Positions 6,818-28,227 of a stretch of DNA of 32,000 nt are shown piece after piece. Positions within the stretch are counted from its first letter, which is position 1; each line of letters opens with the position of its first letter. The stretch covers positions 171,643-203,642 of the forward strand of contig CAJXJW010000007.1 in the NCBI GenBank assembly GCA_913055625.1. Reading direction: 5' to 3'. The notes under the pieces are model-generated. The model had not been told where the DNA came from and made no database searches. It was given only the letters and a program-made list of their open reading frames with translations. Source of the stretch: an uncultured Pseudomonadota bacterium (GTDB taxonomy: Bacteria > Pseudomonadota > Gammaproteobacteria > Steroidobacterales > Woeseiaceae). A program made the translations under genes and the position numbers.

Positions 6818-6937
6818 GGGCATTGCCACCGGCAGTACCGGCGCGCATTGCGACCTGTGCACACCAAAAACGCCACCCGTCTGTGGTATCAAGCCCAGCG
6901 TGATCTGCATGGAGGCCGGCGCGTGCCGGCAACGTGA

Positions 6938-8218: not shown

Positions 8219-8236
8219 TCGGCCAAGGACGCCATT

Positions 8237-13856: not shown

Positions 13857-13872
13857 GGCCCGGGCTCGCGGT

Positions 13873-14628: not shown

Positions 14629-14691
14629 CGATACATGGCTCTCCCGGTTCGGCGCCCGACCGTATCCTATCCCGCCTCTGCGACTCAAGTG

Positions 14692-15738
14692 ATGTCCCCG
14701 GCCGTATTGCCCGACGAGACGGCGGCGGGTCGGCGTCCCGGGAGCCCGTCGACGGCGCCGCGGGATGCGTTGTGGGTGGCCTGGAACGACCACCGGCGCA
14801 CGACCGGCCTGTGCGATGCCTGGGACGTCCCGCTCGAGGTGGTCCGGGCCGGTATCCGGGGGCCATTGCGCTGGATCGAGCTGCCGTTGCGGACACTTGG
14901 CCTGCTGCGGCGCCGCCGGCCCGCAACGCTGTTCGTGCAGAACCCGTCGCTGGCCCTCACGGCACTCGCGGTGCTGGTCCGTCCGCTGTTCGGCTACCGG
15001 CTGGTGGTCGACGCACACAACGAGGGCGTGCGGCCTTACGACCGTCCGTACCGGGCCGTGCGATGGCTGACACGGCGCATGCTGCGCGCGGCGGACTGGA
15101 CCGTCGTATCGAACGCCGGCCTTGAGCGGGACGTGATCGATGCCGGCGGGCGCGCGCTGGTGCTGGCGGACCCGCTGCCGCTTGCCGCGGCAACGAGAAA
15201 GGCGGCGAGGGCGTCCGTCGACGTGGTCGTCGTCGCGACGTACCGGCCCGATGAACCGATCCAGGCGCTGCTCGACGCCGCGGCGGCCTTGCCGGATCAG
15301 CGCTTCGCGTTCACGGGGGATTCGCGGCGATTCGGACGCGCCAGACCCGACATACCCAACAACGTATCGTTGACCGGGTTCCTCGACGACGCGGACTACT
15401 GGGACCTGTTGCGACAGGCCCGGGTCGTCTGCGACCTGACGCTGAAGCCCGACTGCCTGGTCTGTGGCGCTTACGAAGCGCTGGCCGTCGGCAGGGCGAT
15501 GGTGCTCTCGGACAACGTACCGACCCGAGCCCTGTTCGGCGACGCGGCGGTGCTGACCGGCAGCGCACCCGGCGAAATTGCCGGCGCAATGCGCGCGGCG
15601 CTCGATCGCAGCGACGCGCTGAGCACGGCAGCGGCGCGCTTGCGGGACCGCTATCCGGCCGATTGGGACGTCAACAGTGCGCAGGTTCAGCAGGCGATCT
15701 GGCCGTCGTCGGACCGGCAGGTGCAGGGGGCGGCCTGA
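14692..15738 (+). CDS. GT-B fold glycosyltransferase (group 1-like); start uncertain
   Basis: The C-terminal half '..VVVATYRPDEPIQALLDAA..FTGDSRR..LTGFLDDADYWDLLRQARVVCDLT..CGAYEALAVGRAMVLSD' resembles group 1 GTs. Candidate starts are ATG 14635 (only 6 nt from the divergent GT2 start) and ATG 14692. The first Rossmann strand 'ALWVAWND' begins later still. Confidence 0.55.
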   Translation: MSPAVLPDETAAGRRPGSPSTAPRDALWVAWNDHRRTTGLCDAWDVPLEVVRAGIRGPLRWIELPLRTLGLLRRRRPATLFVQNPSLALTALAVLVRPLFGYRLVVDAHNEGVRPYDRPYRAVRWLTRRMLRAADWTVVSNAGLERDVIDAGGRALVLADPLPLAAATRKAARASVDVVVVATYRPDEPIQALLDAAAALPDQRFAFTGDSRRFGRARPDIPNNVSLTGFLDDADYWDLLRQARVVCDLTLKPDCLVCGAYEALAVGRAMVLSDNVPTRALFGDAAVLTGSAPGEIAGAMRAALDRSDALSTAAARLRDRYPADWDVNSAQVQQAIWPSSDRQVQGAA

Positions 15739-16808
15739 TGGATTCGTTGCCGCGCATCGTGTTTTTCAATATCAACGGCTCGGGCATGGGACACCTGAGC
15801 CGCTGCCTCGCGTACGCGCGCCGGCTGCGTGGCCAGGCACGACCGATATTCTTCTCGCTGGCCTCGGCGATCGAGATCATCGAGGAGATGGGGTTCGAGG
15901 CGGACTACTTCGTGTCGGAGTTCTGGTCCCGGGCTCACATCAGCGCGTGGAATCGCGAACTGGCCGTGCGCTTCGGCCTGTTCCTGGAGGAGGTGCGGCC
16001 GAGTGCCGTGGTCTTCGACGGAACCTGGCCGTTTCACGGGTTCATGGATGCCTGTTTCGCGGCGAAGGTGCCGCGCAAGGTCTGGTCGAACCGCGGCCTG
16101 CACAAGCCGGGATTCGCGCCGGTGCCCGTCAGCGAACGCGAGTTCGACCTGGTGCTCGAGCCCGGCGAGATCGGGGCGGCATACGCCGTCGTGCAGGACG
16201 AAACGCCCGGCCGCAAGGTGCGAATTCCGCCGGTCACGATTTTCGCCGGGCAGGAGTTACTCGAACGGAACGACGCCCGCGACGCGCTCGGCCTGGAGCG
16301 GGATGGCCGCTACGTGTTGTTCTCACTCGGACCGGGCAACCTGAAGGACGTCGGCGAAATCGCGCAGGGACTCATTGGCGTGTTCCGGGCGAGCGAATTC
16401 AGGATCGTGTGGGCCTGTGCCCCGATATCCGTCCGCGATGTCGACGTCCCGGACGACGTACTGCCGATCAGCGTTTTCCCCCTGGCGAAGTACATGCGTG
16501 CCTTCGACGGCTTTGTCGGCGCGGCCGGGTACAACGCGTGCTGCGAGGTGCTGCAGTCCGGCGTGCCCGGCATCCTGTTGCCGAACAAGCTCGTCGCCGA
16601 CGACCAGCAGAGGCGCGCGGAGACGATTGCAGCGCATGCGCGCGTCGTCGTGTCGGCATGCGAGTCGAGCGCAGAGCAGGAGCAGGCGCTGCTGGACCTG
16701 CGTCGGCTGGCCAGCATGCCGCCGCCGGCGGGGCAGGGCCCGGATCTTGACGGTGCCGATCGTGCTACGGACGAGATTCTGCGGCTGCTGTCGGGGAGCG
16801 CGGCGTGA
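15738..16808 (+). CDS. GT-B glycosyltransferase, MurG/GT28-GT1-like, module copy A
   Basis: N-terminal glycine loop 'RIVFFNINGSGMGHLSRCLAYARRL'. The C-terminal donor site 'VGAAGYNACCEVLQSGVPGILLPNKLVADDQQRRA' resembles the MurG-type 'xAGxxTxxExxxxGxPxxxxP...DQxxNA'. ATG 15738 overlaps the preceding TGA by 1 nt. Confidence 0.6.
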   Translation: MDSLPRIVFFNINGSGMGHLSRCLAYARRLRGQARPIFFSLASAIEIIEEMGFEADYFVSEFWSRAHISAWNRELAVRFGLFLEEVRPSAVVFDGTWPFHGFMDACFAAKVPRKVWSNRGLHKPGFAPVPVSEREFDLVLEPGEIGAAYAVVQDETPGRKVRIPPVTIFAGQELLERNDARDALGLERDGRYVLFSLGPGNLKDVGEIAQGLIGVFRASEFRIVWACAPISVRDVDVPDDVLPISVFPLAKYMRAFDGFVGAAGYNACCEVLQSGVPGILLPNKLVADDQQRRAETIAAHARVVVSACESSAEQEQALLDLRRLASMPPPAGQGPDLDGADRATDEILRLLSGSAA

Positions 16809-17353
16809 GTCTCGATGATGAGATCGTCGATGTCCGTCGCACGGTACAGCGCCTGGCCGACGAATCGGAGCCCGTGCTGTTGCGCCGCTATGCGCTCTGG
16901 CACCCGGTTGGTGAACGACGAACCCTGTGCCGGCGGCTGCGCCGGGCGCTGGGTCGCGTACTGCGTGCCGTCCGACTGCGTCCCACGGCTCCGGTGGAAC
17001 CGTGGCGCGTCGACCTGGAGCATGCCGGCTGCGGCGACCCGGTCCGGCCGTTCGTCATCTGGGCAATCGGCGCCGACCGGCAGCGGCTGGCGCAGGCGTG
17101 CGTCGGCTTCCGGCGCATGCTGCAGGACTCGCCTGGACGCGTGCCGGTGCTGGTGACGGATGTGGCGGACTTTCGCGCGTTCTCGCGGCTGGGCTGGCTC
17201 GTCGAATACGTGCCCAGGCTGTCCGAACCCGCCTCGGCGTACGGTAACCGGAAACTCCGCCATCTCGCGGCGCTGTACCGGGACGTGCCGGTGCTGCCGG
17301 TCAGCGCCGGCCTGGCCCGCGACGTGACCCTGGAGCAATTGCGGCTTGACTGA
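16805..17353 (+). CDS. Hypothetical protein, small partner of module copy A (no motif I recognise)
   Basis: GTGA start/stop overlap with the upstream GT-B gene. It has a paralog at 19190..19771 that shares 'PVLVTDVAxFxxFSRLGWLVEY'. Conservation between the two copies supports real coding. Confidence 0.55.
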   Translation: MSLDDEIVDVRRTVQRLADESEPVLLRRYALWHPVGERRTLCRRLRRALGRVLRAVRLRPTAPVEPWRVDLEHAGCGDPVRPFVIWAIGADRQRLAQACVGFRRMLQDSPGRVPVLVTDVADFRAFSRLGWLVEYVPRLSEPASAYGNRKLRHLAALYRDVPVLPVSAGLARDVTLEQLRLD

Positions 17354-18416
17354 TTCCGCCGAAAAAGACCTGCCGGTCGTCGTCTTCTTCAATATCAACG
17401 GGTCCGGAATGGGCCACATGAGTACCTGCCTGGCCTATGCGAACCGCCTGCGGGGGCGCGCGCGCCCGGTCTTTTTTTCGCTGGCGTCGGCCATGGAGTT
17501 CATCCACGGCATGGGCTTCGAGGGCGACTACCTGGTTTCCCGGTTCTGGTCGCGCGCCAGCGCCTGGGACTGGGACCGTGAACTGGCCCTGCGGCTGGGG
17601 TTGCTGTTCGAGCACGTGCGGCCGAAAGTCGTGGTGTTCGACGGCACGTGGCCGTACCGCGGGCTTCTGCATGCCTGTCGCGTCTACGGCGAGGCACGCA
17701 CCGTATGGTCGAACCTCGTCCTGTACAAGAAGGACTTCCGCAAAGTGCCGGTCAGCGAGACGAACTTCGACCTCGTCATACGGCTCGGCGAGATCGGCTC
17801 GGCATTTGCCGTGGAGCGCGAGCACCGTCCCGCTCGCACGGTGGTCGTGCCGCCGGTTACCGTCATGAAGGACGACGAGTTGCTGGATCGCCGGTCCGCG
17901 CGCCGTGAACTCGGTTTGCGGGAAGACGGTCGGTATGCCCTGTTCTCGCTCGGGCCGGGGAATCTCAAGGACGTCAGCGCGATCGGGGCGGGCCTGATCG
18001 ATGAAGTGTCGAGCCGGGGCTACGAGGTGCTCTGGACGCGTACGCCGATCAGCGAGTCGGACGTTCCGTTGCCTGACGGAATCGTGCCGCTATCAGTCTT
18101 CCCCCTGGCCCGCTACATGCGGGCGTTCGACATCCTCGCCAGCGCTGCGGGCTACAACACCTGCTGCGAGGTACTGCAATCGCGAGTGCCGACGCTATTC
18201 GTTCCGAACACACTGGTCGCCGACGACCAGGCGCGCCGCGCCGCGATGGTGGCGCGTGCGGTGCCGGCCGTGATCTCGCCGTGCGAGAGCGAGGAGGAGC
18301 GTCGCCGGGCAGTCGATCGACTCGTGTCCTTGGCCGACCACACCACGCCGGACGCGAACGCGGTCGACTTATCGGGCGCGGAACGCGTCGCCGAGGAACT
18401 CCTGCAACTGGTATGA
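17346..18416 (+). CDS. GT-B glycosyltransferase, MurG/GT28-GT1-like, module copy B
   Basis: 'VVVFFNINGSGMGHMSTCLAYANRL', 'ASAAGYNTCCEVLQSRVPTLFVPNTLVADDQARRA'. It is colinear with 15738..16808 over its whole length, with roughly half or more residues identical by eye. TTG start at 17346 overlaps the upstream gene by 8 nt. Confidence 0.6.
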   Translation: MTDSAEKDLPVVVFFNINGSGMGHMSTCLAYANRLRGRARPVFFSLASAMEFIHGMGFEGDYLVSRFWSRASAWDWDRELALRLGLLFEHVRPKVVVFDGTWPYRGLLHACRVYGEARTVWSNLVLYKKDFRKVPVSETNFDLVIRLGEIGSAFAVEREHRPARTVVVPPVTVMKDDELLDRRSARRELGLREDGRYALFSLGPGNLKDVSAIGAGLIDEVSSRGYEVLWTRTPISESDVPLPDGIVPLSVFPLARYMRAFDILASAAGYNTCCEVLQSRVPTLFVPNTLVADDQARRAAMVARAVPAVISPCESEEERRRAVDRLVSLADHTTPDANAVDLSGAERVAEELLQLV

Positions 18417-18422
18417 GTGCGA

Positions 18423-19151
18423 CTAGCCGAACAGCCCCTTCAGGAACCGGCGCCGCGGCTTCAGCGCGGGTAGCGTCCCGGTGTCACCGGGCTTCCGCGC
18501 CAGTCCCCAGCGCCCGTTGTTGATGATATGCAGATCCGTGTAGCCGAGCCTGGGAACGAGGATGTCGAAAACCATGCGCACCGCCGGCGTCGCGCGCTCG
18601 TCGGCGCTGGCCTGGCGCCAGTGCGCCGGTTCCTTCGCCATGCCGGACGCGGCTTCGCCGATCGTCCACGGGAGATCGTCGAAGAGGATCCACCCTCCCG
18701 GGCGCAGCAGAAAGTCCACGAGCACGAAGCCGAATCCCGTTGCGTCCCACGTGTGGCCGCCGTCGAAATAGCAGAGATCGAACTGTGGGCGCGGCGATTG
18801 CTGGATCATTCGGGCAAGCTCCCACGTGTACGACCGTTCCGCGAAGATTGTTTCGACGCGATGGGTCAACCCGAGTCTGGCAAGGACTTGATGGATGTTC
18901 GGGTCGCGGCGAGCTGCCGTGGTTCTGTCGACCGTCACGAGGTGTCCGTGCCCGCGGTCCTCGAGGATCGCGGCGATGTACGCGCTGCTCTTGCCATGGT
19001 AGAAACCGATCTCGAGGATCTGCTGCAGGTCGTGCCGGGACATCACGTCCCGGAGCAGCGAAGCTTCGGAATGCACCATGTAGTCGAGGTCGCCGAAGGT
19101 CGTGCGAACGTTGTCAAAGTTGTCCAATTTTCCGGATTCCTGCCTCTGCAT
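18423..19151 (-). CDS. Class I SAM-dependent methyltransferase (O-methyltransferase-like)
   Basis: Motif I-like 'QILEIGFYHGKSSAYIA', 'HLVTVD', 'FDLCYFDGGHTWD', 'LLRPGGWILFDD'. Start set at ATG 19151 ('MQRQESGKL..'). The ORF-track extension to 19376 is antisense to the next gene. Confidence 0.7.
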   Translation of the reverse strand: MQRQESGKLDNFDNVRTTFGDLDYMVHSEASLLRDVMSRHDLQQILEIGFYHGKSSAYIAAILEDRGHGHLVTVDRTTAARRDPNIHQVLARLGLTHRVETIFAERSYTWELARMIQQSPRPQFDLCYFDGGHTWDATGFGFVLVDFLLRPGGWILFDDLPWTIGEAASGMAKEPAHWRQASADERATPAVRMVFDILVPRLGYTDLHIINNGRWGLARKPGDTGTLPALKPRRRFLKGLFG

Positions 19152-19189
19152 TGCAATCGGGGAGCCCCGACCGCCGGGCCACGGCACGT

Positions 19190-19771
19190 ATGATACGTGA
19201 CGACGAAACCGAATTGATCGAGCGATTTCGAGCGGCGTCGTCGCCCGGTGCGGGCGGCGAGCCCGATTCGCGTTACGCCTTGAGCCATCCGCCGCGCCCG
19301 CCGGGACTGTACTGGAGGTTGCGCTGGTTCGCGGGCCGCGTCGTTCGATGGTTGCGAGCCAGGCGGCTTCTGGCATCGAACCCCTGGCCGGTCAGCCTGA
19401 CGTACGCCGGCTTCGACGCCCGTGCGAAACCGCTGGTCGTCCTGGCAATCGGCACGCACCCGGATGCGCTGGTCGCATCCTGCCGCAAGCTTGCCGGAGT
19501 GCTCCGGTCGTTTCCGGAGTTTGCGCCGGTTCTCGTGACCGACGTGGCGCGCTTCGCGTTCTTTTCGCGGCTCGGCTGGCTCGTGGAGTATCTGCCGGAT
19601 ATCGCCGGGTCCGACGCGGACTACCCGGAGCGCAAGTTCCGCCTGCTTGCGCGTCGCTACCGCGGCGCGCCGATCATTCCGCTGGGTGCGGCGAGCGAGG
19701 CAGCGTTCGACGAATCCGGGCTGCGGGCGTTGTTGATGGCCGGGCCCCGGGGACCGGCGGCGCGGCCCTGA
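19190..19771 (+). CDS. Hypothetical protein, small partner of module copy B (paralog of 16805..17353)
   Basis: 'PLVVLAIGTHPDALVASCRKLAGVLRSFPEFAPVLVTDVARFAFFSRLGWLVEYLPDI' aligns with 'PFVIWAIGADRQRLAQACVGFRRMLQDSPGRVPVLVTDVADFRAFSRLGWLVEYVPRL'. Start set at ATG 19190, because the ORF-track start at 18740 is antisense to the methyltransferase. Confidence 0.55.
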   Translation: MIRDDETELIERFRAASSPGAGGEPDSRYALSHPPRPPGLYWRLRWFAGRVVRWLRARRLLASNPWPVSLTYAGFDARAKPLVVLAIGTHPDALVASCRKLAGVLRSFPEFAPVLVTDVARFAFFSRLGWLVEYLPDIAGSDADYPERKFRLLARRYRGAPIIPLGAASEAAFDESGLRALLMAGPRGPAARP

Positions 19772-19804: not shown

Positions 19805-20851
19805 CTATCGAAATCGACGCTTCGACCAATTCTCCAGCCACCGTTCGGCCGGTAGGAAGCCGTACTCGGCTGCGACACGCTCGGCATCCGGGCGCAGTTC
19901 CTCCGCGTACCGGGCCCGTTCCTCGGCCGTCAGCGAGAACCGGATTCTGCGGCGGTTCTGGGGGCGAACCGTCCACGCCATCTCGTCGATGCCGAGAAAC
20001 GCGCAGACCTGCTTCATGACCGACCGCGGTTTCCGGCACAACTGGTCGAAATCCACGAGAAGAATGTTCTCGCGCGGGATCCTGGACGCAAAGAGATCGA
20101 GGTGGGCTGCGTAGCGGGAAAGGCGAAGGCAATGCCGAACGCTCCCGGTATCGCCGGTCTTGCCCAGCGTATGAGCCAGATGCGACTCTATCCGGTCCAC
20201 CGGGTCGCGAAGGAGGTAGGCGATCCGCGTTTCGGCTCCGAGGTTTGCAATTCGGGCAGGAACGTTCTTCGTCGCCGGAAGCTTCGCGTAGTTCGGCGAT
20301 ACGTCCAGCGTCCAGGCATGTTTCGCCGGGTCGAAGTCAAAGCGCCAGTCATAGTTCAACGCTGAGTGTGAGTTCCGGTAGAGCCTGGAAAAATAGTTGA
20401 TCTCTTTCGTGAAGCTCTTTCCGGGGACTTCGACGTTCGTGCCGCACAGGGCAGGGTGCTTCGAGAGCATGCGATGCAAGGTTGTCGTTCCGGCCTTCAT
20501 GGCACCGATCACGATGAAGTGGCGGCCGACCGGCTCGATGCCGGGACCGCTGGCCACCGAGAACGCCCGTGCGCCGAGCTCGCCATCGCGTCCCTCCACG
20601 GCGCATTCGATGTGCGTCGCTGCCGGAGGCGTCTTGATGCTAACGTGATCCGTGCGCGGGCCCAGGGCCCGTCGCTCCTCCGCGAGCAGGCGTCGGCGCC
20701 TGAAGTAGCGGACGTACACACTTGAGCCGCGAACGCCGGCGGGGTCGAAGCGAATCTCTACGTGAGCGGCAGCCCTGACGCGGAAACGATTGCTGTCGTT
20801 CAGGGATTCGGTCGCGCTTCGCTGCGGCGACGTACTAGATGTCGAGCTCAT
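19805..20851 (-). CDS. Sulfotransferase (PAPS-dependent family)
   Basis: 5'-phosphosulfate-binding loop 'IVIGAMKAGTTTLHRML' and 3'-phosphate-binding motif 'YLLRDPVDRIESHLAH'. ATG 20851 gives a ~110-aa N-terminal extension and a 17-nt overlap with the upstream ADH gene. In-frame GTG 20557 is a shorter alternative. Confidence 0.8.
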   Translation of the reverse strand: MSSTSSTSPQRSATESLNDSNRFRVRAAAHVEIRFDPAGVRGSSVYVRYFRRRRLLAEERRALGPRTDHVSIKTPPAATHIECAVEGRDGELGARAFSVASGPGIEPVGRHFIVIGAMKAGTTTLHRMLSKHPALCGTNVEVPGKSFTKEINYFSRLYRNSHSALNYDWRFDFDPAKHAWTLDVSPNYAKLPATKNVPARIANLGAETRIAYLLRDPVDRIESHLAHTLGKTGDTGSVRHCLRLSRYAAHLDLFASRIPRENILLVDFDQLCRKPRSVMKQVCAFLGIDEMAWTVRPQNRRRIRFSLTAEERARYAEELRPDAERVAAEYGFLPAERWLENWSKRRFR

Positions 20852-21980
20852 CGAGCGCCTCGGTCACGATGGACCTGACGTCGGCTTCCGTCGCATCGCG
20901 CAGATTGTTCTCTGCACGGCCGGGCGCGAACATCTGATTCGACAACGCGAGGACAGATTCCTTGTCCGGCACAAACCGGGAAACGTGCTTGCTGACGTCG
21001 ATTTTCTCGAACAATGCTGACAGGCCCTCGGCCAGTTCCGAGGGCCGGCGAAACCCGACGCTGCGCGCCAGGTCCTGCAGCCTGCCGTCGTCCGCCGCGG
21101 CATTGAACCTGAGCAGTGCCGGCAGCGTGAAGCTGCAGGCCAGCCCGTGCGGCAGTTCGAAATTCGAGGTCACCGGGTAGGAGATCGCGTGCGCGAGTGC
21201 CGTTCGGCTCTGGCTGATGGCGAGGCCGGCCAGCGTGCTGGCCTGGATCATGGCAGCCCGCGCCTCGATGTTGTCGGGTTGTTCGACGACCCGGGGAAGG
21301 TTGCGGATCGATTGCTGCAGCGACCGGGTGGCGAGTCCGATCGACACCGGCGTGGCATTGCGGTTCCAGCTCGATTCCAATGCATGCGACACCGCATCGA
21401 GGCCCGACGCAACCGTCACGGACTCCGGAAGTCCCAGTGTCAGCTCGGGGTCCAGGATGGCGTGCTGCGGGAAGAGATCATTGGCGGCAAGGGAATGTTT
21501 CTTCTTGCCCGCCCGGTCCCAGACCGTACCGAACGGCGTGACCTCTGCCCCGGTTCCGGCTGTCGTTGGCACAGCGATGACCGGCAGTGCAGGCGATACG
21601 TCGATTCGGCTCGTTCCGGCGAGCAGCGCATCGAGCGCGGTTCCCGCCGGGAGACCGAGCAGCTTTGCAAGCGCCTTGGCCGTGTCGATGACGCTGCCGC
21701 CGCCCACGGCCAGCAGGATGGCCGGGTCCTCGCGGCGTACGCGCTCCGCCTGGGCCTGTATGTCGCGAACGTCGGGGTTCGGTGCGACGTCATCGAGTAC
21801 GGCGACGATTCTTTTCCCGAATGTCTGTTCGAGGTTGTCGACGAGTCCGCGGCGGCGAAAGCCGGCGGAGGTAACCACCAGTACACGCGATTCCTCGACC
21901 AGCCCGGACAGTCGCCTGGCGGCGCCGATATCGAACAGGATCCGGACGGGGTTGTTGTAGGTCCAGGTCTCGTTGCGCAT
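20835..21980 (-). CDS. Iron-containing (group III) alcohol dehydrogenase; by context a phosphonoacetaldehyde reductase (PhpC/FomC-like)
   Basis: 'AVGGGSVIDTAKALAKL' and the metal-binding His-rich region 'LAHAISYPVTSNFELPHGLACS'. It lies directly downstream of ppd in the same operon. Confidence 0.7.
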   Translation of the reverse strand: MRNETWTYNNPVRILFDIGAARRLSGLVEESRVLVVTSAGFRRRGLVDNLEQTFGKRIVAVLDDVAPNPDVRDIQAQAERVRREDPAILLAVGGGSVIDTAKALAKLLGLPAGTALDALLAGTSRIDVSPALPVIAVPTTAGTGAEVTPFGTVWDRAGKKKHSLAANDLFPQHAILDPELTLGLPESVTVASGLDAVSHALESSWNRNATPVSIGLATRSLQQSIRNLPRVVEQPDNIEARAAMIQASTLAGLAISQSRTALAHAISYPVTSNFELPHGLACSFTLPALLRFNAAADDGRLQDLARSVGFRRPSELAEGLSALFEKIDVSKHVSRFVPDKESVLALSNQMFAPGRAENNLRDATEADVRSIVTEALDELDI

Positions 21981-22013
21981 GTTTCGACTGCGTCCCGATC
22001 TCGCCGGCGCGAC

Positions 22014-23138
22014 TCAGAGCCCGAGGCTCTGCATCAGCGCGTCGCGGTTCTCGATGGGCGTCGACTTCGGTCGGCCGAGCTCAGGCCGTGCTCCCTTGTT
22101 GACGACGACTTGCAGCAGGGCCGGTCCGCGTAGCCCGAGCAGCCGTTGCAGCTCGCGCGCAAGTTCCTCTTCGTCCGTGACCGACACGGCCTCGCGATAC
22201 CCGCAGGCCCGCGCGATGGCCGGCACATCGATTTCGTAGCCTACGGTGGGCTGCCCGCCGACCGAATCATGGGCCCCATTATTGATCACGATGTGCAGCA
22301 GGTTGTCGCTGCCTTGCCGGGAGATGATGCCCATGGCGCCCATGTGCATGATCAGCGAACCGTCACCGTCCAGGCAGACGACGCGGCGCGCCGGTTGTGC
22401 GCGTGCCAGTCCCATCGCGATGGACGCCGTGTGTCCCATGCCGCCGACGGTCAGGAAATCATTGCCGGCGGTACCTTTCGCCTGCCGATACTCGTAGACC
22501 TCCCGTGACGCTTTCCCGGTCGTCGAGACGACGACATCCTCATCCCCGAGCCGTTCGAGTACGCACTGGATTGCCGCCTCACGGTTCATCGGGTAGTTCG
22601 TCGCTGACTTCTTGCGCAACTCGTAACGTGCGAACGTGTTCTTGCGCACCAGGAGGGCCACGGGCGCCGCCGCCTCCTTCATCGTGCGGCATGCCTCCGC
22701 CAACACGGTGGTCGCGTCTTCCGCCTCGGCCGGCAAGACGAACCACGGCACCTCCATCGCATCCAGCAGCTCCGTCATTCGGCGTCCTTGCTTGACGTGC
22801 TGGGGCTCGTCCTTCACGCCGGGCTCGCCGCGCCACCCGATCACCATGAGCATCGGGACGCTGTAGACCTCGCGATCCGCGAGGGACAGCAAGGGATTCA
22901 CGGCATTGCCGATACCGGAGTTCTGCATGTACACCACTGCCGGTTTCGCGCTACCCAGGTAGTGCCCCATCGCCAGTGCGACCGCATTGCCTTCGTTTGC
23001 GGCAATCACGTGATCGTCGTCGGGTGCGTTGTCACTGACGTAGGCGCAGAAGTCCTTGAGCAGGGAGTCCGGGACGCCGGTAAAAAAGTCGAAGCCGTTC
23101 TGGCGCAGAAGGTCGTAGATGAGCGCGCTTTCCAGCAT
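22014..23138 (-). CDS. ppd: Phosphonopyruvate decarboxylase (ThDP-dependent)
   Basis: '[34 protein letters not shown]', 'NEGNAVALAMGHYLG', and the ThDP motif 'GDGSLIMHMGAMGIISRQGSDNLLHIVINNGAHDSVGGQ'. The ATG at 23136-23138 overlaps the pepM TGA at 23138-23140. Only the last 374 aa of ORF 22014..24104 are real. Confidence 0.9.
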   Translation of the reverse strand: MLESALIYDLLRQNGFDFFTGVPDSLLKDFCAYVSDNAPDDDHVIAANEGNAVALAMGHYLGSAKPAVVYMQNSGIGNAVNPLLSLADREVYSVPMLMVIGWRGEPGVKDEPQHVKQGRRMTELLDAMEVPWFVLPAEAEDATTVLAEACRTMKEAAAPVALLVRKNTFARYELRKKSATNYPMNREAAIQCVLERLGDEDVVVSTTGKASREVYEYRQAKGTAGNDFLTVGGMGHTASIAMGLARAQPARRVVCLDGDGSLIMHMGAMGIISRQGSDNLLHIVINNGAHDSVGGQPTVGYEIDVPAIARACGYREAVSVTDEEELARELQRLLGLRGPALLQVVVNKGARPELGRPKSTPIENRDALMQSLGL

Positions 23139-24439
23139 CAGCGCGTTCCCGGTATCAGGTCGAGAATTTCCTTGATCGACAGGAGCTGGCTGTCCGCCTC
23201 CGCGGACCGGCCGTTCGTCAGGATCGACTTTGCCGTGCTGACCATTGCCGGGTAGGCGGCACGCAACAACTGGTTCGCGTAGATGACGACGTTGACACCG
23301 TGGTCGATCAACTCGGCTTCCGTGACCTGGTTGTAGGTCGAGGGTACGACGACAAGAGGCACGCGGCGGTCGAACGCCTGGTAGCGATCGCAAAATTCGA
23401 AGATCTCGTCCGGCGTCTTGCTCTTGCTGTGGATCAGGATGCCGTCGGCTCCGGCCTCGATGTATGCCTGTGCCCGGGCTATCGCGTCGTCGAGGCCCTG
23501 TTCGAGGATCAGGCTTTCGATGCGCGCGATGATCATGAAGTCGTCGGTGATCTGCGCGGCCTTGCCGGCCCGGATCTTGCCGCAGAAGTTCTCGATCGAG
23601 TCCTGCTGCTGCGGCACCTCGTTGCCGAAGAGCGAATTCTTTTTCAATCCGACCTTGTCTTCGATGACAGCGGCAGAGACTCCGAGACGCTCGAGTGTCC
23701 TGACCGTGAACTGGAAATGCTCCAGCTTGCCGCCGGTATCCGCGTCGTAGACGATCGGTTTGGTCGTGACTTCCAGGATGTCGTGCAGGGTCTGTGTGCG
23801 CGACGTGACGTCGACGGCCTCGATGTCGGGTTTTCCCTTCGCCGTGGATTCGGTCAGGCTGCTGCCCCACATGCCGTCGAACTCGCGCGGGCCGTTCTTG
23901 CCGTTTGCGGAAATGCTTTCGACGATCAGACCCGTCAGGCCGTTGTGTGCCTCCATTAGCCGAACGAGCGGCTTGACGCGAAGCAGCCGCCGCAACTTGT
24001 TGCGACGCATGTCCGGTGTCGTGCCGATGTCCTTCATGGCTTCGTGCAACTGCGTCGACGAGATGCCCTTCGTGTACGGAATCTCGATAAGCTCGCCGCC
24101 CCATTCAGCGAGCGCGTCGACCACTGCGGCCCGCACGTCGCGCTGGACGCCTTCGCGCCAGTCGTCGCCGTGGACGACGAAATCCGGCTTCAATGCCCGC
24201 AGGTTCGGAACGTAGTCCAGCGTCTCCTGGGGAACGACCCGCTCGACACCTTTCAACTGCTCGACCACTTCCCGGCGTTGCTCGAAGGTCATGTAGGGCA
24301 GGCGCTTGTAGCTCGCGATCGCTTCATCCGTGAGCAGACCGATGGTGACCTGGCCCAGCTTCTGAGCTTCCCTGATGATGTTCAAATGACCGGGATGAAC
24401 CAGGTCTGCGCTCATCGCGACGTACACAAGCTTCGTCAT
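23138..24439 (-). CDS. pepM: Bifunctional protein: N-terminal HIGH-type cytidylyltransferase-like domain fused to phosphoenolpyruvate phosphomutase
   Basis: aa 1-~135: '[21 protein letters not shown]' (HxGH nucleotidyltransferase motif, TagD/ECT-like). aa ~145-433: PEP mutase with the diagnostic '[10 protein letters not shown]' (23633-23662) and 'DADTGG'. The Shine-Dalgarno-like GAGGAAG lies just upstream of ATG 24439. Confidence 0.9.
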
Positions 24440-24877
24440 CTACTTCCTCTTCTGCGTTCCGATTGCCCAATGCGTCAGGCCGGCTGCGACGTCCGGCGAA
24501 ACAGGCCCAAAGACAGGGAACGACGCAGGCAGGTTGCCAAGCCGGAGATTCGGGCAGAATGAATCCGAGGGTTTCGGCCGCTGGCGCCGCTGAAACCCGG
24601 CATACAGAAAGGCGGGCGGGTTCGCGATGGTTGCCCGAGACCTCGGCCGACAAGACTGCTGGGTCGTTCCGGCGGGTATTGTATGGCCTGATCGCTTGAA
24701 TCGCCATACCGAGGGCGGTTTCGGCAATGGCTGTATTTCGCGGTGAAATCCGCGCAGGCGGTCGCTCCGCGAAGTCGAATTGGCGGGTAATACAGACCGA
24801 GTTTGATACAATCCCCCGCCGATTAACCGGACCAGGCGCGATGCGACCGGTTCAGCGCCCTGTCTTGCGGCAAGGCA
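24440..24877. promoter_or_regulatory. Divergent intergenic control region between the pepM operon (-) and the Stealth/LicD operon (+)
   Basis: At 438 nt this is the longest non-coding gap in the accessory part. Contents: an imperfect hairpin GGGTTTC(24569-24575)/GAAACCC(24592-24598); a 7-bp inverted repeat GTATGGC(24681-24687)/GCCATAC(24703-24709); an extended -10-like TGaTACAAT (24804-12) about 66 nt upstream of ATG 24878; and GGCGGGT repeated at 24615, 24671 and 24782. Confidence 0.4.
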
Positions 24878-26533
24878 ATGACGTCGCCTGTTGTGAGCTG
24901 CGTGCGCCGCCGACCCGTTCCTGGAGACTGTGTGTTCCGCTCACTGCTCAGCCGATTCGATACGTTGCCGGTCGCAGGCCGCCTTCTGCGGCGCTTCGCG
25001 GCGACAGCCGAAGACGAGGCTGGTCGTCGGGTCGGAGATGCGGACGGGCTGCCGATACGACCTGCCGATCGGCGTGCCGTGTTGCAATCCTTGCTTGCGG
25101 CCAGGTTCCACGACGCCGGAATCGAGTGCCATTGTGCCGATGGAGAATCCGCTGCCTATTGCGCCATCCTCGACAAGGATGTCGATGGTGCTGCCCGGGT
25201 TCTGCAGCGACTGGCCACTGATCTCGGCGTCAACCAGGTCGTCGTCTGGCAGGGCCGGGGGTACGGGTACGGCGCGGAGCAGCTCGCCGAGTCGCTGCAA
25301 CCGGCTGACGTTGCCGGGTCGGACTCACTCGTCGTCGCCGTACCGATCGTCCGGGAACGATTGCGGATCGGACGATCCGGTGGCGTGGAGGTGCTGATCG
25401 TCGGGCGACAGGGGCCGCGCTACGTTGCGCGACGCGACTGGGCGGGCAAGGTCGACTGGACGCAGGAGTTTGCCGGCAGCACCAGTGTGCCGGCGGCTGA
25501 TGGCGAGGCCGCTGCGCGCCCGTCATGCTCGAGGAGGCCCCGGCAGCACGTTCTCGACCGCGAGCCCGTCGATGCCGTCTATACGTGGGTCGATTCCGGC
25601 GATGCGGATTGGCTCGCGGAGATGCAACGCTGGGCATCGCGGGAACGCGGGGGTCTCGAATCTTCCCGCGAGCCAGAGCGATTCGCCGATCGGGATGAAC
25701 TGCGCTATTCGCTGCGTTCGCTATGGCTCTATGCTCCCTTCGTGCGGAACGTCTTCATCGTCACGTCCGGGCAGGTCCCTCGCTGGCTCGATGGCTCGCA
25801 CGACCGGGTTCGTGTCGTGCCGCATCGAGACATTTTCCCTGACCGTCGCGATTTGCCGACGTTCAACTCCCACGCGATCGAGGCGTGCCTGCACCGGATC
25901 GAGGGACTCGCAGAGCATTTCATCTATTTCAACGACGACGTTTTCCTGTTGCGCGAAACCACGCCGGGGACGTTCTTCACCCGGAACGGCCTCGCGAAGA
26001 GCCGGTTCTCAACGCGGGCTGCGATCCCGGCCGTCGAGCCCGGGCCCGAGTCCATCCCGACGGATTGGGCGTCATACAATGCCGCGACGTTCATCGAGAG
26101 AGACTTCGGACTGCGTTTTGACAGGAAGCTCAAACACGTTCCCATGCCCATGAAGAAAAGTGTATTGGCCGACCTGGAAACGCGATATGCCGACGAGTTC
26201 GAGGCGACTCGCCGGGCTAGGTTCCGTTCCAGCAGCGATATCGCCGTGCCGAGCATGCTGGCACATCTGTACGGCATCTGTGCCGGTCAGGCCGTGGAGT
26301 GGCAGCACGTGCCCGGCGAGTACGTTTATGCGGACAGCGGCAGGTCCGATATACGATCGAAACTGGAGCAGATGCTCGAAGGTCCGGCCACGTTCGCCTG
26401 CATCAATTCGACCCGATTCTCCGACGTCTCCACCGAGGAGCAGCGCGACCTGCTCGCCCGCTTTTTCGAGCAGCGGTTCCCGTTCCGTTCTCCGTTCGAG
26501 ATCGAAGGCCGGCGCCCGGGTGCGCAATCGTGA
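24878..26533 (+). CDS. Stealth-family hexose-1-phosphate transferase (capsule phosphotransferase/polymerase-like), copy 1
   Basis: Stealth conserved regions: CR1 'VDAVYTWVDSGDADW' (from 25568), CR2 'DRDELRYSLRSLWLYAPFVRNVFIVTSGQVPRWL' and 'LPTFNSHAIEACLHRIEGLAEHFIYFNDDVFLL'. CR3/CR4-like regions: 'KHVPMPMKKS', 'SSDIAVPSMLAHLYG'. The ~230-aa N-terminal region is unassigned and the start codon is uncertain. Confidence 0.85.
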   Translation: MTSPVVSCVRRRPVPGDCVFRSLLSRFDTLPVAGRLLRRFAATAEDEAGRRVGDADGLPIRPADRRAVLQSLLAARFHDAGIECHCADGESAAYCAILDKDVDGAARVLQRLATDLGVNQVVVWQGRGYGYGAEQLAESLQPADVAGSDSLVVAVPIVRERLRIGRSGGVEVLIVGRQGPRYVARRDWAGKVDWTQEFAGSTSVPAADGEAAARPSCSRRPRQHVLDREPVDAVYTWVDSGDADWLAEMQRWASRERGGLESSREPERFADRDELRYSLRSLWLYAPFVRNVFIVTSGQVPRWLDGSHDRVRVVPHRDIFPDRRDLPTFNSHAIEACLHRIEGLAEHFIYFNDDVFLLRETTPGTFFTRNGLAKSRFSTRAAIPAVEPGPESIPTDWASYNAATFIERDFGLRFDRKLKHVPMPMKKSVLADLETRYADEFEATRRARFRSSSDIAVPSMLAHLYGICAGQAVEWQHVPGEYVYADSGRSDIRSKLEQMLEGPATFACINSTRFSDVSTEEQRDLLARFFEQRFPFRSPFEIEGRRPGAQS

Positions 26534-28227
26534 CGGCAACGTCGAAAACCGAAGGCGGATCGCCGGTGCCGAAATCAGTGCCGAACAACAACCTGTCGGG
26601 GGTGCCGTTGTTCAAGGTCAAGCTCGAACTGGCACGTATGGTGCTGTCGATGAACCGGCTTGCGCAGGATTGCGCACTCGAGCCGAAAGTTCAGGCGAGT
26701 ATTCCCAGGCCGATGGACGTCGTGCGACTGCCACTGGAAGAGCTGGGCCGGAAATCGGAGAAGTTCGCCCGCGCGATGGCCCGGTCGCGCCCGGATTTTG
26801 AGAGTCATTTCCGGGACAACCAGAACCAGGCGATTGTCATGGCGTGGCAGATGGCGAACATCGCGGCCGGTTGCGAAAGAACGCGCTACGAGTATGCGTG
26901 CGCGTGCCTGCGTGCGCACCGTCAGGGCACCGGGTACGCGATCCTCAAGGCGCTCGCAGAGGCCGAGGACAGCAAGTCGAAGTTCGTCACCGCCGCCAGG
27001 AAACGGATCGCAAGGCTGGCCTGGAAGTCGGGGGATACCGAGGTTGCGCTGCGCGCCATGAGGTCGCAGCGTGGGCGGGCGGCGCGCGCCCAGTACCGCT
27101 CGTGGCTAGGCATCTCGACCGTGCGCGACGGCCTGTTGATGGCCGAGGCGGGCGATATCGACAGTGCCCGACTGGTCTTGGCCGGGGGCTTGCGTGCGAA
27201 CGGCATGGACGACGAGGTGGCCGATGCCGTCGCAGCGGTCTATCTCAAGGCATCGTCGCTGAACGGTGAGTTCGACGTGCCGGCCCTCGTCGCGGAGGGC
27301 CAGGCGGCCGAGGCAGACCCGCCTGGCGCGCCATTGCCCATCATCCTGTCCGGGTTCGGCTGGTCCGGCTCCGGCGCCGTCGCCGATTTCCTGACCGGAC
27401 ATTCGGACGTCGTCGACGTGTTCGCGGGTCGGGAGATGGGGCTGTGGACGGGAAAGTACGGTCTCGATCGCCTCTACGCTCACTTCCATGCGAGAGGCTA
27501 CAATCGGCGCTTGCTGCTCGAGTTCCTCACCCGCCACTGTTTCGGGCACCGCTTCCTGGGTGACAGCAAAGGCACCAAGAGCCTGGGTGGCATGTGGGCC
27601 TGGCTGGACGATGCGCAGAAGCGCCGACATCTCGCCCAACTCTGGGCATGGCTCGATGCCATCGCTCGCTGGCACGAAGATCCGGAATGCGCGCTGCTCG
27701 ACGCGTTCCAGGCGTTCTCGATGGGATTCCTGTCGTTGCTGGAGGGGCGCGAGGGCAGCAAGGTGTTCCTGTCGAACTGCATTCCATCGGACTCGATCGC
27801 CGGCATACGAATGTTTCGCGAGCCGGTCGTCATCGTCTCCTGGCGGGATCCGGGCGACGCGTACGCGTCCAAGTCCGCCGCTTTTCCCGATACCTCGCTG
27901 ACGTTCGAAGGCTGGCGATCGCAGTTGACGCGCCGCATCGACCGGTACCTGTCGGGCAAACGGGAAGTCGCCGACTGTGCCAGTGTCTGGCTGGACGTGT
28001 CGTTCGAAGAGTTCGTCCGGGACGCACGCTCGCGAGAGCGGTTGCTGGAGAGGCTCCAACTCGACAGTGCGGCGATGCAGTCGACCTTTGATCCCGCAGT
28101 CTCCGCGCGCAATATCGGCATTCATGAGCCGGGGGCGGGTGCTGCCCGCACAGGCTGGATTGAGCTTGCGCGTGCGGTCGCCGAATCGCGGCAAGTGGCG
28201 CAATCGATCGGGGCAGACCGGGACTGA
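26530..28227 (+). CDS. Two-domain protein: N-terminal alpha-helical region plus C-terminal sulfotransferase-fold domain
   Basis: The C-terminal half carries the loop 'PIILSGFGWSGSGAVADFL', 'VVIVSWRDPGDAYASKS' (RDPxD..S, a 3'-phosphate-binding-like motif) and 'VSFEEFVRDARSRERLLERLQLD'. The N-terminal ~270 aa are Ala/Arg-rich and look helical. The GTG 26530 start (GTGA overlap with the Stealth-1 stop) is inferred; a later ATG near 26638 is possible. Confidence 0.5.
   Translation: MTATSKTEGGSPVPKSVPNNNLSGVPLFKVKLELARMVLSMNRLAQDCALEPKVQASIPRPMDVVRLPLEELGRKSEKFARAMARSRPDFESHFRDNQNQAIVMAWQMANIAAGCERTRYEYACACLRAHRQGTGYAILKALAEAEDSKSKFVTAARKRIARLAWKSGDTEVALRAMRSQRGRAARAQYRSWLGISTVRDGLLMAEAGDIDSARLVLAGGLRANGMDDEVADAVAAVYLKASSLNGEFDVPALVAEGQAAEADPPGAPLPIILSGFGWSGSGAVADFLTGHSDVVDVFAGREMGLWTGKYGLDRLYAHFHARGYNRRLLLEFLTRHCFGHRFLGDSKGTKSLGGMWAWLDDAQKRRHLAQLWAWLDAIARWHEDPECALLDAFQAFSMGFLSLLEGREGSKVFLSNCIPSDSIAGIRMFREPVVIVSWRDPGDAYASKSAAFPDTSLTFEGWRSQLTRRIDRYLSGKREVADCASVWLDVSFEEFVRDARSRERLLERLQLDSAAMQSTFDPAVSARNIGIHEPGAGAARTGWIELARAVAESRQVAQSIGADRD

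Follow-up and report, generated by a model that had tools for sequence, protein, structure and literature searches.

A three-gene phosphonate module lies in a capsule gene cluster of an uncultured soil gammaproteobacterium of the Woeseiaceae lineage, within the 32-kb stretch of genomic DNA analyzed (the window). The module probably serves this capsule or exopolysaccharide locus by making 2-hydroxyethylphosphonate (HEP) and activating it to CMP-HEP, from which a LicD-family enzyme would attach the phosphonate to a glycan. By analogy with characterized homologs, the PepM domain would convert PEP to phosphonopyruvate, Ppd would decarboxylate this to phosphonoacetaldehyde and so draw the unfavorable mutase equilibrium forward, a PhpC-type alcohol dehydrogenase (ADH) would turn the aldehyde into HEP, and a cytidylyltransferase (CyTase) domain fused to PepM would form CMP-HEP from HEP and CTP, as in Fom1. 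A LicD/FKRP-like enzyme of the divergent arm may then use CMP-HEP as donor to place the HEP-phosphonyl group on a sugar hydroxyl, freeing CMP. Sequence, predicted structure, and synteny establish which genes are present, how their domains are arranged, and that the module and its LicD partner are conserved. For the transfer, as for the identity of the acceptor and the roles of the sulfotransferases, gene association suggests the assignment: the acceptor polymer is probably made by two Stealth hexose-1-phosphate transferases and glycosyltransferases, and is probably sulfated, O-methylated, and Wzi-anchored.

The PepM-Ppd-ADH module

The initial annotation placed the module at 20835–24439, and the minus-strand genes pepM (24439–23138), ppd (23138–22014), and Fe-type ADH (21980–20835) are indeed co-directional and span exactly this interval. 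The 33-nt spacing between ppd and the ADH gene (22013–21981) was likewise confirmed, and the quoted motifs EDKxxxxxNS in PepM and GGGSVIDTAKA in the ADH were both found. Two details require correction. The pepM/ppd junction, described as ATGA, reads TGATG, with the TGA at 23140–23138 and the ATG at 23138–23136, giving a 1-nt overlap that is also present in related loci L086–L089. Moreover, the operon does not end in the ADH gene as had been stated, since a gene for a 348-aa sulfotransferase (20851–19805, minus strand; Sulfotransfer_1 and Sulfotransfer_3) follows as the fourth gene, its start overlapping the 3' end of the ADH gene by 17 nt.

The pepM product is a Fom1-like bifunctional cytidylyltransferase-PEP mutase of 433 aa (Pfam PF01467 and PF13714). 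Its CyTase domain (aa 4–138; window 24430–24026) carries HPGH (aa 15–18) and GISST (aa 125–129) and is 67% identical to the Fom1 CyTase domain in PDB 5X3D (E 3.4e-60), and its PepM domain (aa 149–432; 23995–23144) includes the EDKxxxxxNS motif (aa 260–269; 23662–23633). PepM scores 410.8 bits against TIGR02320, and Ppd (374 aa; TPP_enzyme_N and TPP_enzyme_C domains) scores 484.4 bits against TIGR03297, which exceed the curated equivalog cut-offs of 319.55 and 312.5, respectively. The product of Fom1 is CMP-HEP (Cho 2017, as described in PMC6697681); the identity to Fom1, together with gene co-occurrence, suggests that HEP may also be the substrate of the CyTase domain in the window. This domain and the LicD-family gene at 29937–31208 were both overlooked in the initial annotation. 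With the one predicted to provide activation and the other a candidate for transfer, the HEP prediction turns into a proposed mechanism.

The third gene encodes a PhpC-type group III (Fe/Zn) ADH of 381 aa (Pfam Fe-ADH and ADH_Fe_C), with GGGSVIDTAKA at aa 93–103, which is predicted to act as a phosphonoacetaldehyde reductase. Its top family is TIGR03405 (PhpC/PsrA type) at 366.3 bits, compared with 199 for the runner-up; this score is under the trusted cut-off of 423.7. The TIGR03405 member PsrA is described as "highly similar" to P. fungorum PhpC, shown to be HEP-specific (PMC13576164). The metal ligands (D195, H199, H264, and H278) and the predicted HEP contacts (K161, T260, Y268, and R355; residue roles from PMC13576164) occupy positions that are invariant across 72 pepM-linked ADHs. 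The "PhpC-specific" Tyr is also found in T. maritima TM0920, which is also basic at both clamp-residue positions, so that the signature fits HEP binding without being diagnostic of it. In a neighbor-joining distance tree built without the characterized PhpC, FomC, and DhpG sequences, the window ADH falls inside a single clade of all pepM-linked ADHs. This clade leaves out the closest solved Fe-ADHs, and within the tree the window ADH nests with proteins named phosphonoacetaldehyde reductase by NCBI.

The module is well conserved by synteny. The gene order PepM-Ppd-ADH, with the ADH third, occurs in 67 of 80 related genome loci, spread over more than 10 phyla; L052 (a Stackebrandtia MAG) and L054 (a Nonomuraea genome) both carry the module. 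In five related loci, a CyTase-PepM fusion has neither an ADH nor an AEP transaminase nearby, and in three of these the CyTase is 66–71% identical to Fom1. The reported lack of an aminotransferase in the window held in a Pfam scan of every coding-like ORF across the 32 kb, and when the window was searched by tblastn with a bona fide module-linked AEP transaminase as query, the best E-value was 0.17. Genes for a radical-SAM protein, a second cytidylyltransferase, or an unknown of MpnS/HEPD size are also absent from the window. Thus, several independent lines of sequence evidence support the predicted HEP over 2-aminoethylphosphonate (AEP), namely the TIGR03405 score, the residues, the ADH clade, the conserved gene order, and the identity to Fom1.

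The candidate transferase and the capsule locus

The LicD-family phosphotransferase gene (29937–31208, plus strand) has an ATG that overlaps the Stealth-2 stop codon. Its 423-aa product scores 26.7 bits against PF04991 (cut-off 22.6), and the exact protein is on record with this domain. It combines an N-terminal beta-sandwich with an FKRP-like catalytic domain carrying GTLLGHHREGDFIAHDDDMD (30603–30662), and the DDDxD motif is invariant in 23 homologs. The AF2 model has a pLDDT of 87.9, and its top PDB fold is FKRP (E 6e-6), which has been solved with bound CMP (6KAL) and CDP-ribitol (6KAM). LicD profile matches were found in 30 of the 80 genome loci, and seven of the eight matches checked pass Pfam LicD. 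In Alteromonadales loci, the LicD match begins about 100 bp or less from the ADH gene end on the same strand, and in Nonomuraea (L054) a LicD-domain gene lies directly upstream of pepM. Based on these associations, the protein is likely a CMP-HEP:glycan HEP-phosphonyl transferase and is the candidate for this role.

The LicD gene closes a Stealth-X-Stealth-LicD arrangement that is divergent from the module, and this pairing is kept in L086–L089 at about 60% identity. By gene layout, the 438-bp intergenic region between pepM (minus strand) and Stealth-1 (plus strand; 24440–24877) presumably holds the promoters of both arms, a role that we only infer because no sigma-70 consensus match was found in it. 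Stealth-1 (24878–26533, plus strand), conserved in L086–L089 and with regions CR1–CR4 all over the Pfam cut-offs, is predicted to act as a hexose-1-phosphate transferase or as a capsule polymerase. Stealth-2 (28309–29940, plus strand) also has CR1–CR4. Between them lies protein X (26533–28227, plus strand; about 564 aa with an approximate start codon), which has orthologs of 564–586 aa in L086–L089. Its C-terminal half is sulfotransferase-like, with GWSGSG, RDPGDAYAS, and a weak Sulfotransfer_3 match (20.4 bits) that is under the cut-off. Six-frame translation revealed a partial ORF (31205–32000, plus strand) that begins on the LicD stop codon and runs off the window edge. It carries a P-loop-like motif (GAHKTATT) and matched no Pfam family; a gene of about 285 aa occupies this position in L086 and L087.

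On the module side, the sulfotransferase has the PAPS-binding motifs KAGTTT (aa 119–124) and RDPVDRIES (aa 215–223), and its closest PDB entries are heparan-sulfate sulfotransferases. It has an equivalent position in L086 and L087 and is absent from L088. The left arm of the locus (10891–19771), annotated by Pfam and from the gene calls that JGI made on L001, an identical contig, has two Wzi genes (10891–12366 and 12348–13856, both plus), a GT2 (13873–14628, minus), a GT4 (14692–15738, plus), two GT28_C-like paralogs (15738–16808 and 17346–18416, both plus) flanking a 182-aa ORF (16805–17353), a SAM methyltransferase (18423–19151, minus), and a 193-aa ORF (19190–19771, plus). These left-arm genes are shared with L086 and L087.

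Alternative explanations

AEP is the commonest surface phosphonate (56% of neighborhoods; PMC8942020), and the view of the genome is limited to 32 kb, such that a PhnW-type transaminase outside the window might make AEP the true end product and leave the ADH with a side or salvage activity. Two related loci (L079 and L083) do have PF01467-PepM fusions with an AEP transaminase in place of the ADH. However, the window contains no such transaminase, none occurs within 10 kb on either side in the other 78 loci, and the ADH of the window sits in the third slot, which the transaminase holds in L079 (in L083, it directly follows pepM). Moreover, the CyTases of the transaminase-linked fusions form a clearly separate group with 38–39% identity to Fom1, compared with 50–80% for the ADH-linked ones and 67% for the window. 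An AEP end product is improbable. It is scarcely credible that the ADH is a mere operon passenger acting on a non-phosphonate substrate such as a sugar-derived aldehyde. The breadth of the Fe-ADH family, the score under the TIGR03405 cut-off, and the non-exclusive signature Tyr would allow this, but the third-gene position is kept across phyla and the enzyme nests in the pepM-linked clade with invariant K/T/Y/R.

Other readings accept HEP but not its place on a glycan. There is a slim chance that HEP or CMP-HEP is an intermediate to a small-molecule or processed phosphonate (e.g., a fosfomycin-like compound, methylphosphonate, hydroxymethylphosphonate, or dihydroxyethylphosphonate), given that fosfomycin biosynthesis opens with the Fom1/Fom2/FomC trio, that methylphosphonate and phosphinothricin both derive from HEP, and that small ORFs without assigned function are present (182 aa, 193 aa, and the partial one at 31205). 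Against this, the 32 kb contain no radical-SAM/B12 methyltransferase, epoxidase, FomD, MpnS/HEPD-like bicupin, or NRPS gene; the neighbors are all capsule genes (Wzi, glycosyltransferases, Stealth, and LicD), and in L088 the module is flanked by a KpsMT-like ABC capsule exporter. Use of CMP-HEP for phosphonolipid or protein modification, with only incidental proximity to the capsule genes, is also unlikely. Cytidylyl-activated phosphonates have been proposed for lipids as well as glycans (PMC6697681, PMC8942020), and a proposal for Prochlorococcus involves phosphonylated glycoproteins (PMC8931226), but the window lacks a CDP-alcohol phosphatidyltransferase or lipid-synthesis gene, the divergent pairing with Stealth-X-Stealth-LicD recurs in four independent lineages, and glycans are the acceptors of LicD family members.

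Comparison with known systems

The proposed route from PEP to a HEP-decorated glycan shares its beginning with the fosfomycin pathway. The three enzymes match Fom1-Fom2-FomC of Streptomyces wedmorensis, including the unusual N-terminal PF01467-PEP mutase fusion, as does the predicted chemistry from PEP through phosphonopyruvate, phosphonoacetaldehyde, and HEP to CMP-HEP. However, the window lacks Fom3, Fom4, and FomD, and the module is inside a Gram-negative capsule locus; CMP-HEP is a transient C-methylation handle in the fosfomycin pathway, whereas here it is the predicted LicD donor.

The HEP glycans of Glycomyces and Stackebrandtia reportedly bear SAM-derived O-methyl sugars, and the window likewise encodes a SAM methyltransferase. 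HEP is ester-linked to polysaccharide in those systems, as predicted for the window, but they involve actinobacterial exopolysaccharides rather than a gammaproteobacterial Wzi/Stealth/sulfotransferase capsule locus. CMP-AEP tailoring by PntC (Rice et al. 2019, PMC6697681) resembles the window in having a Ppm-cytidylyltransferase fusion, a CMP-phosphonate donor, neighboring LicD-like phosphotransferases, and cell-surface tailoring. In contrast, characterized PntCs are PF12804 (LicC-like) and AEP-specific and cluster with an AEP transaminase (PMC6697681), whereas the fusion domain in the window is PF01467 (Fom1-like) and the ADH takes the place of the transaminase. The methylphosphonate pathway PepM-Ppd-Pdh(PhpC)-MpnS, known from Nitrosopumilus maritimus and marine bacteria, shares the first three steps to HEP, and its neighborhoods also contain glycosyltransferases and LicD-type "choline phosphotransferases" (PMC9381506). 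MpnS and HepD genes are absent from the window, and therefore HEP itself is the predicted head group.

The suggestion in the initial annotation that a HEP-glycan locus would be unusual is overstated. Ppm, Ppd, and PhpC occur together in 8.5% of ppm neighborhoods in complete genomes (PMC8942020), and phpC is found in >20% of pepM genomes, with a marine metagenome abundance 64–76% that of pepM (PMC9381506). Both Glycomyces and Stackebrandtia have characterized exopolysaccharides that bear HEP (Yu et al. 2014, as cited in PMC8942020 and PMC13576164). The module is thus widespread and already recognized, and this locus is a well-supported, fairly ordinary example of it. The Stealth and sulfotransferase context is the sole undescribed part, and the searchable literature yielded no link between Stealth and a phosphonate module. 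Both Stealth proteins share CR1–CR4 with the serogroup A and X capsule polymerases of Neisseria meningitidis, CsaB and CsxA, and the exporter in L088 is also a feature of group 2 capsules. Unlike CsaB and CsxA, these loci have two or three Stealth paralogs each, and every paralog has an N-terminal extension of about 220 aa.

Organization of the phosphonate genes and the ADH

Genes in the window (about 65% G+C) were picked from codon-position GC and from the genes called on metagenomic contigs of identical sequence. Three co-directional genes on the minus strand, namely pepM (24439–23138, 433 aa), ppd (23138–22014, 374 aa), and an iron-type alcohol dehydrogenase (ADH) gene (21980–20835, 381 aa), lie where the initial annotation had placed them, and its 33-nt spacer between ppd and the ADH gene was reproduced. 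The same annotation described pepM and ppd as translationally coupled through an ATGA junction. A stop/start overlap of 1 nt exists, but the junction reads TGATG. In addition, the ADH gene is not the last of the operon as proposed, because a fourth gene, which encodes a 348-aa PAPS-type sulfotransferase (20851–19805, minus strand), starts 17 nt inside the ADH 3' end. Scans of the window for promoters and terminators and against Rfam returned nothing relevant. The operon structure is based on overlapping genes and a conserved gene order.

The pepM product is a bifunctional cytidylyltransferase–PEP mutase. It has the quoted active-site motif EDKxxxxxNS (aa 260–269) and scores 410.8 bits against TIGR02320, which is over the equivalog cut-off of 319.55 (NCBIfam), compared with 170.6 bits against the model of the sister-family phosphonopyruvate hydrolase (PPH; cut-off 374.4). 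Methylisocitrate lyase, the other sister family compared, is outscored as well. The ppd product is a phosphonopyruvate decarboxylase (Ppd/AepY/Fom2) that scores 484.4 bits against TIGR03297 (equivalog cut-off 312.5) and has both TPP domains (PF02776 and PF02775). Residues 4–138 of PepM form a PF01467 cytidylyltransferase (CyTase) domain (PF01467 match at aa 12–131) with the nucleotide-binding motifs HPGH (aa 15–18; HxGH) and GISST (aa 125–129; ISST). It matches the cytidylyltransferase domain of Fom1 (PDB 5X3D; E = 3.4e-60, 67% identity over 135 aa). Among Ppm proteins, 23.6% carry a fused PF01467 domain, as exemplified by Fom1 (PMC6697681), and the Fom1 domain is described as making CMP-HEP from 2-hydroxyethylphosphonate (HEP) and CTP (Cho et al., 2017, as cited in PMC6697681). 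Given this resemblance, the module is predicted to activate HEP besides making it, and the sequence makes it quite probable that the CyTase domain converts CTP and HEP to CMP-HEP.

The ADH (PF00465 and PF25137) carries the previously quoted motif GGGSVIDTAKA at aa 93–103. Its top curated family is TIGR03405, with 366.3 bits versus 198.7 for the runner-up, a score under the equivalog cut-off of 423.7. This family, the "phosphonate-associated Fe-ADH," is now named PsrA and was reported to be "highly similar" to PhpC of Paraburkholderia fungorum (WP_074772540), which interconverts HEP and phosphonoacetaldehyde with high specificity (PMC13576164). For biosynthetic PhpC enzymes, reported kcat/KM values are 1,200–41,000 M-1 s-1. 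The metal ligands of that PhpC are Asp191, His195, His260, and His274, and its predicted HEP contacts are a Lys157/Arg349 clamp, Thr256, and Tyr264 (PMC13576164). The window ADH has a group III Fe-ADH fold with metal ligands D195, H199, H264, and H278, and the counterparts of the HEP-binding residues are K161, T260, Y268, and R355. In an alignment of 72 pepM-adjacent ADHs, all of these positions are invariant except H199, which is either His or Gln. The position of the signature Tyr is occupied by Phe in the closest solved structure (6JKO). However, Tyr268, whose position is reported as strictly conserved in PhpC enzymes, was rejected as a diagnostic residue of PhpC because Thermotoga maritima TM0920 (1O2D/1VHD, compared with window ADH aa 264–268) also has Tyr, and the residue signature is thus supportive rather than diagnostic. 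TM0920 further has basic residues at the Lys/Arg clamp positions, so that the published signature of PhpC extends beyond phosphonate enzymes, or else TM0920 may itself bind an anionic substrate.

A surrogate neighbor-joining tree with solved Fe-ADHs as outgroups, inferred without bootstrap and without characterized PhpC, FomC, or DhpG sequences, placed all pepM-linked ADHs in a single clade, with the four closest solved Fe-ADHs outside it. Within this clade, the ADH of the window nests among homologs that NCBI names "phosphonoacetaldehyde reductase." Based on these sequence comparisons, the ADH is a predicted phosphonoacetaldehyde reductase of the PhpC type (PhpC, FomC, DhpG, AglG, and PsrA), which would convert the aldehyde to HEP with NAD(P)H.

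Related loci and the choice between HEP and AEP

A scan of one genome per species recovered 80 loci with CyTase-PepM fusions that are 56–81% identical to the window PepM. The genome of origin is outside this species-representative set, in which the top PepM match is 81%. The hosts include Gamma- and Alphaproteobacteria, Bacteroidota, Spirochaetota, Chloroflexota, Actinomycetota (including a Stackebrandtia MAG), Melainabacteria, Firmicutes, Planctomycetota, Verrucomicrobia, Helicobacter, and methanogenic archaea. PepM, Ppd, and ADH genes occur in that order in 67 of the 80 loci, and PepM-ADH pairs in four. Two loci are cut by contig ends and five have other arrangements. In the remaining two (L079 and L083), a class-V aminotransferase, i.e., a 2-aminoethylphosphonate (AEP) transaminase (AEPT), replaces the ADH. 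The CyTase domains of these AEPT-linked fusions have only 38–39% identity to Fom1, compared with 50–80% in the ADH-linked fusions. The type of activating domain thus tracks the type of the third enzyme, as would be expected of a HEP-specific Fom1-like domain.

Three other loci (L033, L035, and L076) have CyTase-PepM fusions with Fom1-like domains (66–71% identity) but lack an Fe-ADH gene within 10 kb. In L033 and L076, ppd is not detectable either, and in L035 a gene for a TagF-like glycerophosphotransferase lies immediately upstream. These loci may use another reductase or make another phosphonate. The CyTase-PepM/Ppd/ADH module is also found in methanogens, namely Methanomassiliicoccaceae (L008 and L009) and Methanobrevibacter (L067, L069, and L072–L074), with PepM proteins 59–74% identical to that of the window, which points to transfer between domains of life. 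In Pseudoxanthomonas (L004:11249–14959) and Stenotrophomonas daejeonensis (L006:13566–17186), the ADH gene is followed after about 50 bp by a gene for a multidomain protein of 1206–1236 aa. The pooled Pfam matches for these sister loci include TagF-like, LicD, and GT2 domains, and the protein may combine several enzymes as a capsule polymerase with CMP-HEP as a substrate.

The prediction of HEP rather than AEP is borne out by the ADH family, the active-site residues, the ADH clade, the PepM-Ppd-ADH synteny, and the Fom1-like CyTase domain, and we consider it very likely that the locus makes HEP. An ADH with a role unrelated to phosphonates is extremely improbable beside this evidence. The initial annotation had also noted the lack of an AEP aminotransferase gene, and a scan of every coding-like ORF in the 32 kb agreed, with no aminotransferase domain (Aminotran_5 PhnW/AEPT) detected; a tblastn search of the window with the module-linked AEPT of L079 gave a best E value of 0.17. 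An AEP transaminase may instead be encoded elsewhere in the genome, and we regard this as improbable. The same low probability applies to HEP being an intermediate to another phosphonate, against which the window contains no gene of the MpnS, HepD, Fom3, or Fom4 type.

The Stealth–LicD arm and the proposed attachment of HEP

Divergent from the phosphonate genes, the plus strand encodes Stealth-1 (24878–26533), a conserved protein of about 564 aa with a sulfotransferase-like C-terminus (protein X; 26533–28227), Stealth-2 (28309–29940), a LicD-family protein (29937–31208), and a partial ORF that runs off the window (31205–32000). Both Stealth proteins match CR1–CR4 over the Pfam cut-offs. Their N-terminal extensions of about 220 aa before CR1 (24878–25560 and 28309–28950, plus strand) have no significant family match.

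The LicD protein, assigned to the LicD/fukutin/FKRP family of CDP-alcohol phosphotransferases, narrowly passes PF04991 over a short stretch (26.7 bits; cut-off 22.6), and its catalytic motif GTLLG...DDDxD is invariant in 23 homologs. In a PDB search with its AF2 model (pLDDT 87.9), the top 13 matches are all chains of FKRP (E = 6e-6 to 8e-5; about 170 columns at 4.1–4.5 Å), a CDP-ribitol ribitol-phosphate transferase, and the matched structures were solved with CMP or CDP-ribitol. The predicted fold is thus of the nucleotidyltransferase type seen in the catalytic part of FKRP. A 442-aa ORF at 29880 was considered as a HEPD/MpnS-like dioxygenase because of its size; this assignment was rejected by the LicD motif, the Pfam match, and the FKRP-like fold. 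A profile of this protein picked up LicD-type ORFs at most 10 kb from the module in 30 of the 80 genome loci, and seven of the eight module-neighboring ORFs tested pass the Pfam LicD model. In the Alteromonadales loci, the LicD match starts within about 100 bp of the ADH end on the same strand. Because the PepM-fused domain is the sole cytidylyltransferase in the locus, CMP-HEP is the obvious candidate donor for LicD. By association, LicD-mediated transfer of HEP to the capsule is slightly more likely than not, with CMP-HEP as the proposed donor.

Independent metagenomic contigs share the arrangement of Stealth-X-Stealth-LicD genes divergent from PepM-Ppd-ADH, at a protein identity of about 60%, and two of them (L086 and L087) also have the same set of sulfotransferases and glycosyltransferases. 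On another (L088/L089), the module has a KpsMT-like ABC exporter, a Poly_export protein, and Wzi as neighbors. The sister loci in Stenotrophomonas, Pseudoxanthomonas, and Rhodanobacteraceae contain genes for ABC-2 transporters and KpsC/S-like, TagF-like, LicD, and Stealth proteins.

In the pathway that we propose, PEP would be converted to phosphonopyruvate by the mutase domain of PepM, then to phosphonoacetaldehyde by Ppd, to HEP by the ADH, and to CMP-HEP by the CyTase domain, after which LicD would use CMP-HEP to form a HEP phosphonoester on a capsule sugar. The polymer itself would probably be made by the Stealth hexose-1-phosphate transferases and glycosyltransferases, and then probably be sulfated, O-methylated, exported, and retained by Wzi. 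Close homology to characterized enzymes and strong synteny underlie the steps from PEP to CMP-HEP, and we infer by association how HEP is transferred and what kind of polymer receives it.

A lipid or protein target in place of a glycan is quite unlikely. It is also unlikely, if conceivable, that HEP is an in-chain unit of a teichoic-acid-like, C–P-containing capsule backbone and not a pendant decoration. LicD would then esterify the phosphonate of HEP to a sugar, and a Stealth hexose-1-phosphate transferase would use the free 2-hydroxyl of HEP as the acceptor, giving a poly(glycosyl-phosphate-hydroxyethylphosphonate) capsule with C–P bonds that is possibly sulfated. Such a backbone fits L088, a minimal related locus in which the HEP module is accompanied by X, LicD, an ABC exporter, and three Stealth genes, and in whose visible part classical glycosyltransferases are absent.

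Relation to described systems and surrounding genes

The locus was correctly spotted and is best interpreted as a HEP-type phosphonoglycan or capsule locus. The chemical prediction of the initial annotation (HEP) was very likely right, and its premise that such a locus would be unusual was wrong; all of the component ideas are already in the literature. Neighborhoods with Ppm, Ppd, and PhpC account for 8.5% of those in complete genomes, including those of pathogens (PMC8942020), and Glycomyces and Stackebrandtia are recorded as sources of purified exopolysaccharides that bear HEP (Yu et al., 2014, as cited in PMC8942020 and PMC13576164). Furthermore, more than 20% of the genomes with pepM contain phpC, which in marine metagenomes reaches 64–76% of the abundance of pepM and has glycosyltransferases and LicD-type transferases in its neighborhoods (PMC9381506). 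In the searchable literature, we found no account of Stealth phosphotransferases and several sulfotransferases alongside a HEP module, no explicit mention that PhpC rather than AEPT goes with the Fom1-type domain, and no use of CMP-HEP as a glycan donor. These points are incremental, and the gain from the window itself is modest, in that a sensible annotation was confirmed and no new system was revealed.

Phosphonate-bearing polysaccharides are phosphatase-resistant and account for a large share of the organic phosphorus in marine and soil environments, and HEP esters are a main part of this pool. To our knowledge, none of the enzymes that attach HEP to glycans has been characterized. This locus and its approximately 70 relatives offer a concrete and testable route, in which the Fom1-type CyTase would produce CMP-HEP and LicD would transfer HEP. 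The comparison of loci also suggests that the "transient cytidylylation" of fosfomycin biosynthesis was derived from a widespread cell-surface tailoring module.

Up to three genes in the locus are sulfotransferase-like (19805–20851, minus strand; 26533–28227 and 31205–32000, plus strand). The first is a clear case (Sulfotransfer_1/3 with PAPS motifs), protein X has a weak likeness (GWSGSG and RDPGDAYAS), and the partial ORF has only a P-loop-like motif (GAHKTATT) and no Pfam match. Together, these genes predict a sulfated capsule, and sulfated bacterial capsules are uncommon. The operon sulfotransferase resembles carbohydrate sulfotransferases, and its nearest PDB entries are heparan-sulfate sulfotransferases. 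Its action on HEP itself as a core function is deemed unlikely, as neither L088 nor any of the 80 genome loci has the gene.

Two tandem, overlapping paralogs of Wzi, a capsule-anchoring outer-membrane lectin, are encoded at 10891–12366 and 12348–13856 (plus strand). In related loci (L088), a single Wzi gene lies beside a KpsMT-like ABC exporter, which is an unusual pairing with an ABC-type capsule system. The host is probably an uncultured gammaproteobacterium. For the housekeeping PGI (9255–10877, plus strand), the nearest named relatives are from Woeseiaceae MAGs (73–76% identity), whereas the phosphonate genes are closest to those of Xanthomonadales (80–81% for PepM), suggesting that the capsule/phosphonate locus may be horizontally acquired. 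A 1356-aa ORF (5339–9409, minus strand) is an antisense shadow of the NhaB, UDP-sugar dehydrogenase, and epimerase genes on the plus strand, and its codon-position GC (0.86/0.41/0.64) is not coding-like. Finally, the region at 15738–18416 (plus strand) encodes two 356-aa paralogs (56% identity in tblastn), each of which matches only Glyco_tran_28_C, and only marginally. Between them lies a conserved 182-aa ORF that matches no family, and this trio is kept in L086 and L087.
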